IMG/VR virus record: IMGVR_UViG_2713896908_000005
Reading direction: 5' to 3' (one strand)
From: a virus
Lineage: Duplodnaviria > Heunggongvirae > Uroviricota > Caudoviricetes
DNA length: 37,921 bases
Part shown: in pieces, positions 4,650 through 27,521 of the stretch
Layout: each line of letters starts with the position of its first letter
How positions within the stretch are numbered: position 1 is the first letter of the stretch
Program-made: the position numbers and the translations under genes
Notes under the pieces: generated by a model
Told to the model about the DNA's origin: nothing
What the model saw: only the letters and a program-made list of their open reading frames with translations
The model's database searches: none

Positions 4650-4716
4650 TGAAACAGGTGAGTTGAGTTCAAACTGTAGTACAATTCTCTCCAGTTTGAA
4701 CAGGAAAGAATATGTT

Positions 4717-5049
4717 ATGAACCCTTATATTTATCTTGGTGGTGCAATACTTGCAGAGGTCATTGGTACAACCTTAATGAAGTTTTCAGAAGGTTTTACA
4801 CGGTTATGGCCATCTGTTGGTACAATTATTTGTTATTGTGCATCATTCTGGTTATTAGCTCAGACGCTGGCTTATATTCCTACAGGGATTGCTTATGCTA
4901 TCTGGTCAGGAGTCGGTATTGTCCTGATTAGCTTACTGTCATGGGGATTTTTCGGCCAACGGCTGGACCTGCCAGCCATTATAGGCATGATGTTGATTTG
5001 TGCCGGTGTGTTGGTTATTAATTTATTGTCACGAAGCACACCACATTAA
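4717..5049 (+). CDS. emrE: small multidrug resistance (SMR) efflux transporter EmrE
   Basis: Start at internal ATG 4717; 110-aa product MNPYIYLGGAILAEVIGTTLMKFSEGFTRLWPS... with four hydrophobic helices and the conserved membrane-embedded Glu (AEVIGT); matches E. coli EmrE as recalled. Confidence 0.9.
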   Translation: MNPYIYLGGAILAEVIGTTLMKFSEGFTRLWPSVGTIICYCASFWLLAQTLAYIPTGIAYAIWSGVGIVLISLLSWGFFGQRLDLPAIIGMMLICAGVLVINLLSRSTPH

Positions 5050-5304: not shown

Positions 5305-6831
5305 ATGAAAAAAGCCATAGCATATATGCGATTTTCATCACCAGGTCAGATGTCTGGCGACTCATTAAACCGACAGAGAAGACTTATTGCTGAATGGTTA
5401 AAGGTAAATGGTGATTATTATCTTGATACCATAACATATGAAGATTTAGGATTAAGTGCATTCAAAGGAAAGCATGCACAATCAGGAGCTTTTTCGGAAT
5501 TTTTAGATGCTATAGAGCATGGTTATATATTGCCAGGAACTACATTGTTAGTTGAAAGTCTGGACAGACTTTCAAGAGAAAAAGTCGGTGAAGCGATTGA
5601 ACGTCTGAAATTGATTTTGAATCACGGTATTGATGTTATAACTCTTTGCGACAATACAGTCTATAATATTGACTCTTTGAATGAGCCATATTCATTAATA
5701 AAAGCCATACTTATAGCACAAAGGGCAAATGAAGAAAGCGAGATAAAGTCAAGTCGGGTTAAATTATCATGGAAGAAAAAACGGCAGGATGCACTGGAAT
5801 CAGGTACGATTATGACGGCGTCTTGTCCGAGATGGCTCTCCTTAGATGACAAAAGAACGGCTTTTGTTCCAGACCCCGACAGGGTGAAAACTATTGAGCT
5901 AATTTTTAAACTCAGGATGGAAAGGCGCTCATTGAATGCAATAGCCAAGTATTTAAATGATCATGCTGTAAAGAATTTCTCAGGAAAAGAAAGTGCATGG
6001 GGACCTTCTGTAATTGAAAAATTATTAGCGAATAAAGCTCTGATAGGTATATGCGTACCTTCATATCGTGCAAGAGGGAAAGGGATAAGTGAAATCGCTG
6101 GCTATTATCCCAGAGTCATATCAGATGATTTGTTTTACGCTGTACAGGAAATTCGGTTGGCACCTTTTGGTATTAGCAATAGTAGCAAGAATCCTATGCT
6201 AATAAATCTACTTCGAACAGTTATGAAGTGTGAGGCTTGTGGTAATACCATGATTGTTCATGCGGTATCTGGAAGTTTGCATGGCTATTATGTTTGTCCG
6301 ATGAGAAGATTACATCGATGTGACAGGCCATCAATAAAAAGAGATTTGGTTGATTATAATATCATTAATGAATTGCTTTTTAATTGTAGCAAAATTCAAC
6401 CAGTTGAAAACAAGAAAGATGCTAATGAAACTTTAGAGTTAAAAATTATTGAGCTTCAGATGAAAATTAATAATTTAATCGTTGCATTGTCTGTCGCGCC
6501 TGAAGTTACCGCTATAGCAGAGAAAATAAGACTATTAGATAAGGAATTACGAAGGGCTTCGGTATCATTGAAAACTTTGAAGAGTAAAGGTGTAAATTCA
6601 TTCAGTGATTTTTATGCTATTGACTTAACCAGTAAAAATGGACGAGAGTTATGCCGTACACTTGCCTATAAAACATTCGAAAAAATCATAATTAATACGG
6701 ATAATAAAACCTGTGATATCTATTTTATGAATGGCATTGTTTTTAAACACTATCCTTTAATGAAAGTAATATCCGCCCAGCAGGCGATAAGTGCTCTCAA
6801 ATATATGGTTGATGGTGAGGTTTATTTTTGA
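5305..6831 (+). CDS. ybcK: large serine recombinase (YbcK-like)
   Basis: 508 aa; N-terminal resolvase-type catalytic domain (AIAYMRFSSPGQ with candidate nucleophile Ser, later LDRLSR), long C-terminal extension with Cys cluster (CEACGNT...YYVCPMRRLHRC) and coiled coil; AT-rich, follows emrE as in DLP12. Confidence 0.8.
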   Translation: MKKAIAYMRFSSPGQMSGDSLNRQRRLIAEWLKVNGDYYLDTITYEDLGLSAFKGKHAQSGAFSEFLDAIEHGYILPGTTLLVESLDRLSREKVGEAIERLKLILNHGIDVITLCDNTVYNIDSLNEPYSLIKAILIAQRANEESEIKSSRVKLSWKKKRQDALESGTIMTASCPRWLSLDDKRTAFVPDPDRVKTIELIFKLRMERRSLNAIAKYLNDHAVKNFSGKESAWGPSVIEKLLANKALIGICVPSYRARGKGISEIAGYYPRVISDDLFYAVQEIRLAPFGISNSSKNPMLINLLRTVMKCEACGNTMIVHAVSGSLHGYYVCPMRRLHRCDRPSIKRDLVDYNIINELLFNCSKIQPVENKKDANETLELKIIELQMKINNLIVALSVAPEVTAIAEKIRLLDKELRRASVSLKTLKSKGVNSFSDFYAIDLTSKNGRELCRTLAYKTFEKIIINTDNKTCDIYFMNGIVFKHYPLMKVISAQQAISALKYMVDGEVYF

Positions 6832-13700: not shown

Positions 13701-14012
13701 ATGTCAAACATAAAAATCAAACAAGCTATTGAAAAGATTGCGGAGTTCAGAGCAGCATCTGCTGCGATGGCTGATGCTCACATGGTTCTTATTACAGATC
13801 TATTGAACTCAATTGAGGATATCCGCAAAAACTCTGGTGATAATCTCTCTGAGTTTGAAAAAGGACAGGTTGCTCTCTACATAAAAATTAGCCCAGTTGT
13901 GAAAAATGGAATTTCGAGTATTGAAAAATATAATGAGTCTTTAAGTTCAGACTATGTTGAGGCTATGAACTCCTTATCTAAAATTGCGGGAGGGAATTCA
14001 AATGTCGATTGA
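13701..14012 (+). CDS. cassette gene A: hypothetical 103-aa acidic helical protein
   Basis: ATG with GGAGA SD; AT-rich; stop overlaps start of gene B by 11 nt. Confidence 0.6.
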   Translation: MSNIKIKQAIEKIAEFRAASAAMADAHMVLITDLLNSIEDIRKNSGDNLSEFEKGQVALYIKISPVVKNGISSIEKYNESLSSDYVEAMNSLSKIAGGNSNVD

Positions 14013-14388
14013 AGATGTTGGAAGCATCCTTGATAGATTAAAAGTAGCCAGGATCGAAAATAAAAAAATTGAAGAGTCAGCTGGAAAAGCAGAGGAAAAT
14101 GCTGTTAACTCTAAGCATACTGATGGTAAAACACGAAGCGCCTTAACTATTACGTTTCTCTGGTTCTTTTTTTTCCTTCTTATTTTTAGCTGTCTTTTTG
14201 TTCTTTGGTATAATAATTCTGTTGTGAATTGGGCTTTAGAGTTAAAGAGCAAAGGTGTTGATGATTACGTTCAATATTTAAAGCCACTCGAGCTGGAAAA
14301 GGTATTGTCAATAATGATTACTGCCCTTGGTACTTCATTAGGATTTATAATTGGGTATTATTTTAAGGATAAAGAAAATCATTCTTAA
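14002..14388 (+). CDS. cassette gene B: hypothetical 128-aa membrane protein with two predicted TM helices
   Basis: Start taken at ATG 14002 (GGGAGGG SD) rather than 13984; hydrophobic segments ALTITFLWFFFFLLIFSCLFVLWY and VLSIMITALGTSLGFIIGYYF. Confidence 0.6.
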   Translation: MSIEDVGSILDRLKVARIENKKIEESAGKAEENAVNSKHTDGKTRSALTITFLWFFFFLLIFSCLFVLWYNNSVVNWALELKSKGVDDYVQYLKPLELEKVLSIMITALGTSLGFIIGYYFKDKENHS

Positions 14389-24864: not shown

Positions 24865-25013
24865 CGGCTGAATACCTCACTGATCGCTTCTTTGACTGCG
24901 CCAGCTACTGGCGCATTAATCCCTTCGAATTGCTGAATATGCCGATCAGTGAAATTCCCTTGCTGGTCAGTCAGGCAAACAGGATAGAGCAGGAGAAACG
25001 CACACATGGCTGA
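24595..25013 (+). CDS. tail assembly chaperone GT-like fusion made by programmed -1 frameshift
   Basis: Slippery heptamer T_TTT_TTC at 24846-24852 in the 0 frame (GGT TTT TTC); -1 shift continues FFPPGLTAEYLTDRFFDC... to the stop at 25011-25013, overlapping the tape-measure start. Confidence 0.6.
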
Positions 25014-26838
25014 ATTTGAGCTTAAGGCGTTGATCACCGGTGTCGACAGGCTTTCTCCCGCGCTGTCGAAAATGCAAAAGAAAATCCGGGGATTTAAACG
25101 CCAGGCGGAAGAAGCGTCACAGGGTGGGCTGGCGCTTGGTGGCGGACTGGCAGCGGGGCTGACGCTTTCCCTGAAATCTTATGCCGATCAGGAAAACGCC
25201 GCTACCGGGCTGAAAGTCGCCATGATGGATGCGAACGGCGAGGTTGGAAAGAGCTTTCAGGACATCAATAAACTGGCTATTGGCCTGGGTAACCAGCTAC
25301 CCGGTACAACGGCTGATTTCCAGAACATGATGCAGATGCTGGTGCGTCAGGGGATCCCGGCAGAAAACATTCTTGGTGGTGTGGGTAAAGCGACAGCTTA
25401 TCTTGCGGTACAACTGAAAAAAACACCGGAAGCGGCTGCTGAGTTTGCCGCAAAGATGCAGGATGCTACCGGAACGGCCTCAGAAGACATGATGGGGCTG
25501 TTCGACACAATTCAGAAGGCGTTTTATCTGGGCGTGGACGATACCAACATGCTGTCATTCTTCACTAAAACCAGCTCTGTTCTGAAGATGGTGAATAAGG
25601 ACGGTCTTCAGGCTGCACAGAGTCTTGCCCCCATCAGTGTCATGATGGATCAGATGGGGATGAACGGGGAGTCGGCAGGTAATGCCCTGCGAAAAGTTAT
25701 CCAGTCCGGATTAAGCGTTAAGAAAATCAGGGACGTCAATAAAATCATGGCCCGCCAGAAACTCGGGGTACAGCTCGATTTTACTGATGGCAAAGGGAGT
25801 TTTGGCGGTCTTGATAACATGTTCAGGCAACTGGCAAAGCTGCGAAAACTGACCGACGTTAAGCGAACCGGTGTACTTAAGGCAATATTTGGTGATGATG
25901 CCGAAACCCTTCAGGTGGTCAATGCACTAATCGATAAAGGAAAGGATGGCTACGATCAGATCCAGCAGAAGATGAATAAACAGGCCAGCCTGAATAAACG
26001 TGTTCAGGCTCAGCTTGGTACGCTGTCCAACCTGTGGGAGGCAATGACGGGGACCGCAACTAACGGCCTTGCGGCTATTGGCGGCGCATTTTCTGGTGAC
26101 GCTAAGAACATCACGCAGTGGCTGGGGGAGTTGGGGGAGAAATTCACGAAGTTTGCGGATGAAAATCCCCGGGTTATTCGCGGCGTCGTCGGGCTTGCTG
26201 CCGGTCTTGCGATTCTGAAACTGGGATTGATGGGCGTGGGCAGTGCCATCAACATTGTCAGCAGGATCATGTCGATGACGCCGATTGGCATGATTGCGAC
26301 GGCGATAGCCCTGGCTGCGGGATTAATTATCACTAACTGGGATGTTGTCGGACCTTATTTCAAGAAGCTCTGGGAAACCATTGGTCCTTATTTTGAGGCT
26401 GGCTGGGAACTCCTTAAGAAAGTTTTTGCCTGGTCGCCGCTGGGGATGGTGATCAATAACTGGGGACCGGTTGTTAAGTGGTTTCAGGATATGTGGGATA
26501 AGCTGAAGCCGATTATTGAATGGTTTACCGACAGTTCCGGTGACACGGTCGATACCATTAACTCGGCGCAGTGGGGCGCGGGTGCTTATGATGCTTATGG
26601 GACGGGAATACCGGCACGGGGATACACGCCTTATCCGGCGGTGGATCCGGCTCAGGCAAACAACGCCTCCGATGCCACAGGCTCGAATCCCTTCATGATT
26701 AATAAAGCTACCGCGCCAAAAGTTGATGGTGAGATCAAGGTATCATTTATAAATATGCCACCAGGTATGCGGGTTACGGAAACACGCTCCAGTGGCATTG
26801 ATATAAATCACGATGTTGGCTATACCCGATTTTGGTAG
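25006..26838 (+). CDS. tail tape measure protein
   Basis: 610 aa; Gly/Ala-rich, hydrophobic central segments; position after the G/GT pair. Confidence 0.85.
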   Translation: MAEFELKALITGVDRLSPALSKMQKKIRGFKRQAEEASQGGLALGGGLAAGLTLSLKSYADQENAATGLKVAMMDANGEVGKSFQDINKLAIGLGNQLPGTTADFQNMMQMLVRQGIPAENILGGVGKATAYLAVQLKKTPEAAAEFAAKMQDATGTASEDMMGLFDTIQKAFYLGVDDTNMLSFFTKTSSVLKMVNKDGLQAAQSLAPISVMMDQMGMNGESAGNALRKVIQSGLSVKKIRDVNKIMARQKLGVQLDFTDGKGSFGGLDNMFRQLAKLRKLTDVKRTGVLKAIFGDDAETLQVVNALIDKGKDGYDQIQQKMNKQASLNKRVQAQLGTLSNLWEAMTGTATNGLAAIGGAFSGDAKNITQWLGELGEKFTKFADENPRVIRGVVGLAAGLAILKLGLMGVGSAINIVSRIMSMTPIGMIATAIALAAGLIITNWDVVGPYFKKLWETIGPYFEAGWELLKKVFAWSPLGMVINNWGPVVKWFQDMWDKLKPIIEWFTDSSGDTVDTINSAQWGAGAYDAYGTGIPARGYTPYPAVDPAQANNASDATGSNPFMINKATAPKVDGEIKVSFINMPPGMRVTETRSSGIDINHDVGYTRFW

Positions 26839-26866
26839 CCAGGATTCCCCTCACATGTATTGCTGG

Positions 26867-26894
26867 TTGTAAGTCATAAATAGAGTGATAGAAT
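26867..26894 (+). promoter_or_regulatory. putative promoter of the tail-module cargo gene
   Basis: TTGTAA (26867-26872) -N16- TAGAAT (26889-26894), 35 nt upstream of ATG 26930. Confidence 0.35.
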
Positions 26895-26929
26895 TAATGC
26901 ACATTTAGAAAAATGTTAATAGGCGAAAA

Positions 26930-27460
26930 ATGAAAGGCTATATCACAGCAAGTGTAATTCTTGGAGCAGCGGCTATTTTTTCATCTCTCATAATCTCTGG
27001 CAACATCTCCTTTAAAGATGAACATATTATTCAGTTATCTGGAGGAGCCATAAAACTTGGTGATGTTTATAAAGAAAATAAATTGATAAGTGCAAAGATT
27101 ATTTTTCCAGATAATCAGGGTGAACAGATTCTTGTTGTCGACGGCAATCCTGAAAACTTTAAGGAGGATTTTCAGGAGAAATTAAATAAAGTAATAAAAA
27201 CTTTAAATGCGTCAAAGAAAAAAGATGAAGAGAAAGTTAGCCTGGATAATTTAAGTGTTATTGAAGAGTCTAAACTAGAGCTCGTTTCTGCGGTGCGTTA
27301 CTCTGCTCAGTATGTTCCTATGTTTACTCTGACGCTGGACAAAAAAGAAATTACCATGCCTAAAAATACGGTAATATTTCCATTTGCCAGCGATGAAACA
27401 GCTAAGTATTTAAATGAACAACAGCAAAAGTATAAAGATTCGTTGTTTCTGACTCGCTAA
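26930..27460 (+). CDS. hypothetical 176-aa signal-anchored/exported protein, AT-rich cargo in tail module
   Basis: N-terminal hydrophobic segment ITASVILGAAAIFSSLIISG (no lipobox Cys), Lys/Glu-rich remainder; AT-rich; own promoter and a strong terminator. Confidence 0.7.
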   Translation: MKGYITASVILGAAAIFSSLIISGNISFKDEHIIQLSGGAIKLGDVYKENKLISAKIIFPDNQGEQILVVDGNPENFKEDFQEKLNKVIKTLNASKKKDEEKVSLDNLSVIEESKLELVSAVRYSAQYVPMFTLTLDKKEITMPKNTVIFPFASDETAKYLNEQQQKYKDSLFLTR

Positions 27461-27480
27461 TTAATAAAATTCATTACAAG

Positions 27481-27506
27481 GCCACCTTCTAATAGGTGGC
27501 TTTTTT
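27481..27506 (+). terminator. intrinsic terminator after the tail-module cargo gene
   Basis: GCCACC (27481-27486) ttctaata GGTGGC (27495-27500) followed by TTTTTT (27501-27506). Confidence 0.7.
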
Positions 27507-27521
27507 ATTTTCGGAGTGTAT

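Follow-up and report, generated by a model that had tools for sequence, protein, structure and literature searches.

Phage proteins that exclude superinfecting phages at the envelope

The phage proteins most comparable to the one described here exclude superinfecting phages at the cell envelope. A moron adjacent to the tape measure gene of the siphovirus HK97 codes for gp15, an inner-membrane-inserting protein that causes a tail-dependent block of DNA entry and has homologs outside prophages too (PMC3594210). T4, a contractile-tailed phage, encodes the membrane protein Imm, which halts genome translocation at the inner membrane and is reported to bind the tape measure protein of this type of phage (bioRxiv 10.64898/2026.03.06.709160). 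Cor of phages phi80, N15 and HK022, whose genes are located in tail regions, and Llp of phage T5 are also phage-encoded envelope exclusion proteins (PMC3594210). Finally, Ltp of Streptococcus phage TP-J34 and SieA of P22 are prophage-expressed, membrane-tethered blockers of DNA injection, and Ltp reportedly targets the tape measure protein (PMC3952083, PMC10883804). Here, we describe a gene, called X, that lies between the tape measure and DNA-circulation genes of a 37,921-nucleotide stretch of viral DNA (IMG/VR record IMGVR_UViG_2713896908_000005, Caudoviricetes; the whole stretch is called the window). We consider it very probable that X is at once the cargo of an autonomous cassette and the gene of an envelope protein.

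Like the gp15 gene, X is an AT-rich moron located in a tail operon next to the tape measure gene; of the signals that such units carry, X has a terminator and a candidate promoter. In contrast with X, the gp15 moron is located upstream rather than downstream of the tape measure gene, and its product is small, resembles YebO and lacks a periplasmic domain of appreciable size. The two proteins are not related in sequence or fold, with no cross-match in Pfam or PHROG. Exclusion has been demonstrated for gp15, whereas X is a candidate by analogy. T4 Imm comes from a lytic phage and is a 9-kDa membrane-embedded protein with multiple helices, whereas X is predicted to combine one anchor helix with a 150-residue soluble alpha/beta domain; no homology between them was detected.

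A preliminary description of the window had compared X with Cor-type proteins. This analogy is a poor fit, as Cor and Llp act at an outer-membrane receptor, FhuA, whereas the anchor of X predicts an inner-membrane tether. Unlike the lipoprotein Llp, X contains neither a lipobox nor a Cys, and thus lacks an outer-membrane targeting signal of the Cor/Llp type. There is no sequence relation either: X matches only PHROGs of unknown function, and Pfam searches were negative. Its inner-membrane-type anchor makes HK97 gp15 and T4 Imm better precedents than Cor and Llp. Ltp, a Gram-positive surface lipoprotein, and SieA, a polytopic inner-membrane protein, both differ from X, and neither was recovered by any of the X searches. 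As predicted from its sequence, X shares with the DNA-entry exclusion proteins the property of being a membrane-tethered (pro)phage product. By analogy, X would act in a similar way to the gp15/YebO, Imm, SieA, Ltp, Cor and Llp families, but it belongs to none of them, with negative outcomes for the comparisons of sequence and fold.

A cargo cassette in the tail module of an SfV-type prophage

The window is an SfV-type prophage, with lambdoid early and lysis genes and a Mu-like contractile tail. In its late structural operon (about 15-32.4 kb), X is the sole low-GC island, and the gap between the tape measure and DNA-circulation genes, hereafter the slot, contains no other long open reading frame (ORF). 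The GC content across X is 0.32-0.37, whereas that of both flanks is 0.52-0.60, and the GC content at third codon positions (GC3) is 0.30 for the insert versus 0.57 for the tape measure gene. The preliminary description had reported an AT-rich ORF with a strong terminator, and its coordinates are within 3 bases of those determined here (Table 1). The tape measure annotation is found in the counterparts of phages SKA5 and SfII and of strain S51.

Phages SfV, SfI and SfII have an empty slot. Their junction measures 1,881 bp versus 2,501 bp in the window, with flanks ~96% identical at the DNA level, and their tape measure stop codon is directly followed by a terminator and then by the start of the DNA-circulation gene. 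In the alignment, homology to these phages stops after the tape measure stop codon and resumes at the T-run TTTTTTAT. SfII has its own annotated terminator at the corresponding place. The tape measure, DNA-circulation and gp44 proteins of SfV, SfI, SfII and SKA5 are 97.7-99.7% identical to those of the window, and SKA5 harbours in the slot an unrelated gene coding for a 170-residue protein with a signal peptide. Since SfV, SfI and SfII have near-identical tail proteins, with values of 97.7-99.2%, and no X, such a tail is built without it. The proposal that X is a cargo gene inside the tail module is thus borne out by its absence from these four phages, despite flanking proteins that are ~98% identical.

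The junction is present in 1,098 of 5,426 complete E. coli genomes (about 20%), and X was found in 173-179 of the junction-bearing genomes, i.e. about 3% of complete genomes. All X orthologs have GC contents of 0.34-0.42, in phages whose own values are 0.46-0.58, and a GC-rich hairpin followed by a T-run is found 3' of X in seven of the eight orthologs examined. Where synonymous sites are not saturated, the ratio of nonsynonymous to synonymous substitution rates (dN/dS) of the orthologs is 0.078, indicating purifying selection.

An intact X homolog, together with its terminator, is found beside icd in Lelliottia amnigena (locus L007, 7809-8600). A decayed C-terminal fragment of a tape measure gene is located just upstream, and there are no other phage genes nearby. 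This copy is a relic of an e14/SfV-type prophage of which the cargo cassette alone has been kept; its dN relative to the prophage copies is 0.10-0.13, with dS saturated. Its intactness without a surrounding phage shows that the cassette has outlived the prophage.

The region 26839..27511 thus shows presence or absence between colinear genomes, a deviant base composition and a terminator of its own, as do morons. It is a self-contained mobile prophage cassette under purifying selection that is dispensable for the tail.

X is predicted to be a tethered periplasmic protein of an uncurated family

The X protein matches PHROG 5485 over its full length (E 3.8e-108, residues 1-176 on profile positions 1-176). 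This PHROG is annotated as 'unknown function', and the corresponding RefSeq entry, WP_000679479.1, as 'hypothetical protein'. The N-terminus of X consists of MKGY followed by about 20 uncharged residues. In 60 aligned homologs, the uncharged stretch has a median length of 20 residues, with net charges of +1.0 for its N-terminal flank and -0.7 for its C-terminal flank, and every one of the 60 has the signal-anchor signature. The 20-residue uncharged anchor and the positive-inside bias predict an inner-membrane tether with a periplasmic body. X is therefore predicted to be a single-pass protein with an N-in/C-out topology and a periplasmic body of ~150 residues. The hydrophobic N-terminal anchor or signal without a lipobox noted in the preliminary description thus corresponds to residues 4-24 of a protein that has no Cys. 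Its description of the body as Lys/Glu-rich is also correct (13% Lys and 9% Glu in the mature part).

Among the 60 sequences, G44 and Y124 are invariant, and G39, L43, Y47, E49, N93 and L134 reach a conservation of at least 90%. The AlphaFold2 model built with the 60-sequence alignment has a predicted local distance difference test (pLDDT) score of 91.3 and a predicted TM-score (pTM) of 0.75. It comprises a helix at residues 3-22, a beta-hairpin, four longer strands and long helices at residues 74-93 and 149-171. Export, topology and fold are thus those suggested by the sequence and the model. The coordinates of the features of the locus are collected in Table 1.

Table 1. Features of the X cassette and its borders in the window
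Feature	Coordinates	Strand	Description
Tape measure gene	25006..26838	+	610 residues; stop codon is the left border of the slot
Inserted cassette	26839..27500	+	DNA missing from SfV, SfI and SfII (alignment); GC 0.34
Sigma-70 promoter-like site	26867..26894	+	TTGTAA-16 nt-TAGAAT; TG two bases 5' of the -10 hexamer; 9/12 consensus match
Shine-Dalgarno-like TAGGCG	26920..26925	+	4 nt before the ATG; read from the sequence
X, cargo gene	26930..27460	+	ATG start, 176 residues; member of PHROG 5485; from the ORF list
N-terminal hydrophobic signal anchor YITASVILGAAAIFSSLIISG	26939..27001	+	Codons 4-24; Kyte-Doolittle 19-mer maximum 2.1
Predicted periplasmic alpha/beta ectodomain	27002..27457	+	Codons 25-176; six strands, two long helices
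Family signature G-x-V/I-x-L-G-x-V-Y-x-E	27044..27076	+	Codons 39-49, right after the anchor
Intrinsic terminator	27478..27511	+	10-bp GC-rich stem (27478..27503), 6-nt loop, T-run to 27511
DNA-circulation (Mu gp43-like) gene	27522..28850	+	Right border of the slot; PF07157 in orthologous loci

The family had been described as unknown, and Pfam, NCBIfam, PADLOC and PDB sequence searches indeed gave no match; searches of the PDB with the single sequence and with the profile returned nothing below E 0.5. A PHROG match annotated as 'endonuclease' (E 0.014) was rejected: it corresponds to the Lys/Glu-rich stretch, and neither the fold nor the other members support it. X represents an uncurated family of a known kind, that of the moron-encoded envelope proteins of prophages.

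Profile and structure searches had been proposed in the preliminary description. While the curated libraries and the PDB sequences yielded no relative, Foldseek identified one remote match, a lipoprotein of Pseudomonas phage ventosus (A0A2H4P829), as the sole significant match among viral models (E 9.8e-7, probability 1.0, TM-scores 0.53/0.63). Its gene is MG018930 CNR37_00111. The product begins with MKRLLFLGITALLLTGC; the family motif comes next, right behind the lipobox, and the protein aligns with the X family profile in hhalign (E 1.1e-4, 126 colinear columns). The two proteins thus have the same motif directly behind the membrane tether, but the ventosus protein has a lipid anchor where X has a transmembrane helix. 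It is also smaller, with 144 residues, and in the profile alignment the counterpart of the first long helix of X is shorter. Ventosus is a lytic 97-kb phage, and the lipoprotein gene is found among early/middle genes, outside a tail slot. As this lipoprotein is itself uncharacterised, the likeness gives no function. Nevertheless, the occurrence of the same domain on a lipid tether rather than a helical one supports the idea that X acts in the periplasm.

Distribution and genomic contexts of the X family

The close relatives of X are E. coli copies that are ~99% identical and proteins of Leclercia, Lelliottia and Citrobacter that are 52-59% identical. When 1.84 billion representative proteins were searched with a profile, 77 relatives were identified, nearly all of 168-195 residues, those named being from Edwardsiella, Mangrovibacter, Citrobacter and Lonsdalea. 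A close relative is present in just two of 185,579 species-representative genomes; X is thus a sparse accessory gene. Scans of viral contigs with three distant members of the family found nothing.

The gene order tape measure-X-DNA-circulation was found in Leclercia adecarboxylata, L. pneumoniae, a Citrobacter metagenome-assembled genome, Edwardsiella, Lonsdalea and one metagenomic contig. The homologs found in the same slot in the Leclercia, Citrobacter, Edwardsiella and Lonsdalea prophages are 30-59% identical to X. Two other locations were identified. In a lambdoid prophage of Citrobacter, an X homolog lies between the Q antiterminator and holin genes, beside an IS200-type transposase gene, and in an unrelated myovirus another one lies between the baseplate hub and spike genes. 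Two further distant members are on short contigs. The preliminary description had named a conserved structural role in related tails as the finding that would speak against its reading. The occurrence of homologs outside tail modules, one of which has survived the decay of its prophage, speaks against such a role.

Additional genes accompany X in some of these contexts. The slot of the Lonsdalea prophage contains three further cargo ORFs of unknown roles after X (locus L013, 6600-8103). They code for proteins of 132 residues (phrog_4293), 209 residues (phrog_1349) and 120 residues, the last with a C-terminal membrane helix and a weak match to hemolysin XhlA. In both non-canonical slots, X adjoins another gene for a small signal-peptide protein, of 113 residues in locus L014 (5576-5917; phrog_3443) and of 124 residues, without a family, in locus L011 (7001-7375). 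An IS200-type transposase gene comes next in L011.

The slot is a cargo hotspot in E. coli

We took a census of the slot in an evenly spaced sample of 60 rows of junction matches, which yielded 49 junctions with both flanks. The slot is empty in 24 of them and contains X, with its signal anchor, in 10. Five junctions harbour the SKA5-type gene (phrog_8976), whose product has a signal peptide, and five others a gene on the opposite strand for an OB-fold protein with an N-terminal membrane helix. A 225-residue lipoprotein is encoded in three junctions, and the remaining two code for a PH-domain protein that has no targeting signal and is cytoplasmic. Thus, at least five single genes including X occupy the slot, and the products of four of them are envelope-targeted. 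All have GC contents of 0.31-0.42, versus 0.53 for the flanks. Kinship of X with the other cargos was ruled out by hhalign. In E. coli prophages of the SfV type, the slot is therefore a cargo hotspot. Its cargos make up a short candidate list of prophage-encoded surface or entry defences that lie outside the coverage of PADLOC.

Possible functions of X

By analogy with the systems described above, X could well be a periplasmic protein, expressed by the prophage, that keeps out superinfecting phages once they have adsorbed; we put this forward tentatively, with slightly less than even confidence. Both the expression of X in the lysogen and the mechanism of exclusion are proposed by analogy. X would most likely be made in the lysogen as a non-virion protein serving the host-prophage pair. 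From the inner membrane, its periplasmic domain would intercept the tape measure protein or tail tip of the incoming phage; alternatively, it might act on a periplasmic or inner-membrane host factor that this phage needs. In either case, DNA entry would be stopped while the surface receptors would remain functional. As only ~3 of its residues are predicted to lie in the cytoplasm, X would be unable to sense events there, which disfavours mechanisms of the abortive-infection type. If X does act in exclusion, a family with a new fold joins the few proteins that halt phage genomes at the periplasm or inner membrane, and its mechanism would be approachable via its tape measure neighbour.

Several observations weigh against exclusion as the role of X. 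The protein is unlike any known exclusion or defence protein in the PADLOC, Pfam and NCBIfam searches, which gave only scattered single chance matches over X and the 60 homologs. Its fold offers no functional hint, with no fold match in the PDB. We found no paper mentioning X or its PHROG in literature searches that covered WP_000679479, PHROG 5485 and the slot; the Tab and Tai papers deal with other genes at other sites. Selection on X is strongly purifying, with no sign of a diversifying component, and this is not necessarily the pattern expected of an exclusion factor in rapid co-evolution. Moreover, there are candidate signal-peptide cleavage sites after residues 23 and 24, and a cleaved signal peptide or a releasable anchor is possible instead of a fixed one. 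Lastly, an envelope location suits other roles equally well.

The promoter is a further point of this kind. The preliminary description had attributed to X a promoter of its own, and a consensus-like site is indeed present at the sequence that it gave. However, a scan of the region found two such sites versus 2.9 +/- 1.7 in shuffled sequences, i.e. not above chance, and the expression of X in the lysogen is thus an assumption. A TTGnnA-17-nAnAAT element is equally placed in the X orthologs of Leclercia, Lelliottia and locus L024. The position of the -35/-10-like pair is conserved in four orthologs, and this equal placement lends some support to the promoter candidate.

The tape measure proteins of the E. 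coli and Leclercia prophages are 36% identical, compared with 75% for the sheath, 67% for the DNA-circulation protein and 82% for gp44. This divergence points to mosaic exchange or to fast evolution of the tape measure gene. Co-variation between X and the tape measure protein, both of which have diverged much further than the sheath and baseplate, was considered as well; with four lineages it is inseparable from shared phylogeny, and it was not used.

If exclusion is the role of X, a broader but rather doubtful proposal is that X founds a new-fold family of tethered periplasmic exclusion proteins. Helix-anchored in enterobacterial prophages and lipid-anchored in lytic Pseudomonas phages, they would bind the tape measure protein or tail tip of contractile-tailed phages in the periplasm and so block genome delivery, and the slot would be an exchange hotspot for envelope defence.

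A different possibility, which we hold unlikely, is that X is an envelope factor of lysogenic conversion on the model of Bor/Iss or Lom, with no link to phage exclusion. It would alter the physiology of the envelope in favour of the host, for instance by conferring resistance to stress or serum or protection from colicins, tailocins or type VI effectors. An AT-rich gene with its own terminator and a predicted exported product has the architecture of conversion morons, the related prophage of strain S51 carries iss, and the other slot cargos are likewise envelope proteins of unknown role. The retention of X in Lelliottia after prophage decay and the purifying rather than diversifying selection are also in line with conversion. 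However, the niches of the carriers are diverse (gut E. coli, the fish pathogen Edwardsiella, the tree pathogen Lonsdalea and environmental Leclercia), which speaks against a role specific to a single animal or plant host. In addition, nearly all contexts of X are phage tail or lysis regions, and conversion would be meaningless for the remote homolog of the strictly lytic Pseudomonas phage.

The presence of a homolog in a lytic phage is consistent instead with a periplasmic role of X in the lytic cycle, through read-through of the late operon, a possibility that we consider quite improbable. X might then, for instance, affect the timing of lysis or spare the progeny futile adsorption to cells that have already lysed. 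For lysis timing, the model would be T4 RI, an antiholin-like sensor with an N-terminal anchor and a periplasmic domain. X is in the late operon in the same orientation as the neighbouring genes, and Q-antiterminated transcription would read through it; in Citrobacter, it is directly upstream of the lysis cassette. Nevertheless, the cassette has a terminator of its own, SfV, SfI, SfII and SKA5 are functional without X, and the intact Lelliottia copy has been kept without a phage. The composition of the anchor was also considered. Gly, Ala, Ser and Thr make up 55% of it in X, in the range of releasable (SAR) anchors, but the family mean of 0.40 does not stand out from ordinary membrane helices. 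The idea of a SAR anchor was therefore not retained, as this content is not distinctive.

Lastly, an accessory assembly or structural part in the tail or baseplate of SfV-type phages, as might be suggested by the conserved position between the tape measure and DNA-circulation genes across five genera, is close to refuted by four isolated phages that have near-identical tails without X, by the predicted export anchor, by the occurrence of X in a slot outside the tail genes and as a solitary relic in a chromosome, and by a slot that holds unrelated alternative genes and is empty in about half of the sampled E. coli junctions.

Other accessory islands in the window

The window contains additional regions of low GC content. 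A second island (13701-14388, GC 0.34) is found between the Rz/Rz1 and HNH/terminase genes. It comprises ORFs for proteins of 103 residues and of 134 residues, the latter with a membrane segment, and the prophage of strain S51 has iss at this place. In the early region, a block with a GC content of 0.35-0.39 harbours a gene for an EmrE-like small multidrug-resistance protein (4714-5049) and one for a 508-residue large serine recombinase (5305-6831). Near the end of the tail-fibre region, an ORF on the minus strand (35426-36214, GC 0.30) codes for a 262-residue protein with CxxC/HNH-like motifs. It adjoins the gene of a Pin-type DNA invertase (34482-35072) and may be another accessory or defence gene.

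In the SfII record (KC736978), the annotated start of the DNA-circulation gene SfII_17 is inside an annotated rho-independent terminator (locus L002, 2355-2393). This start has probably been called 14 codons too early, giving a protein of 456 instead of 442 residues.

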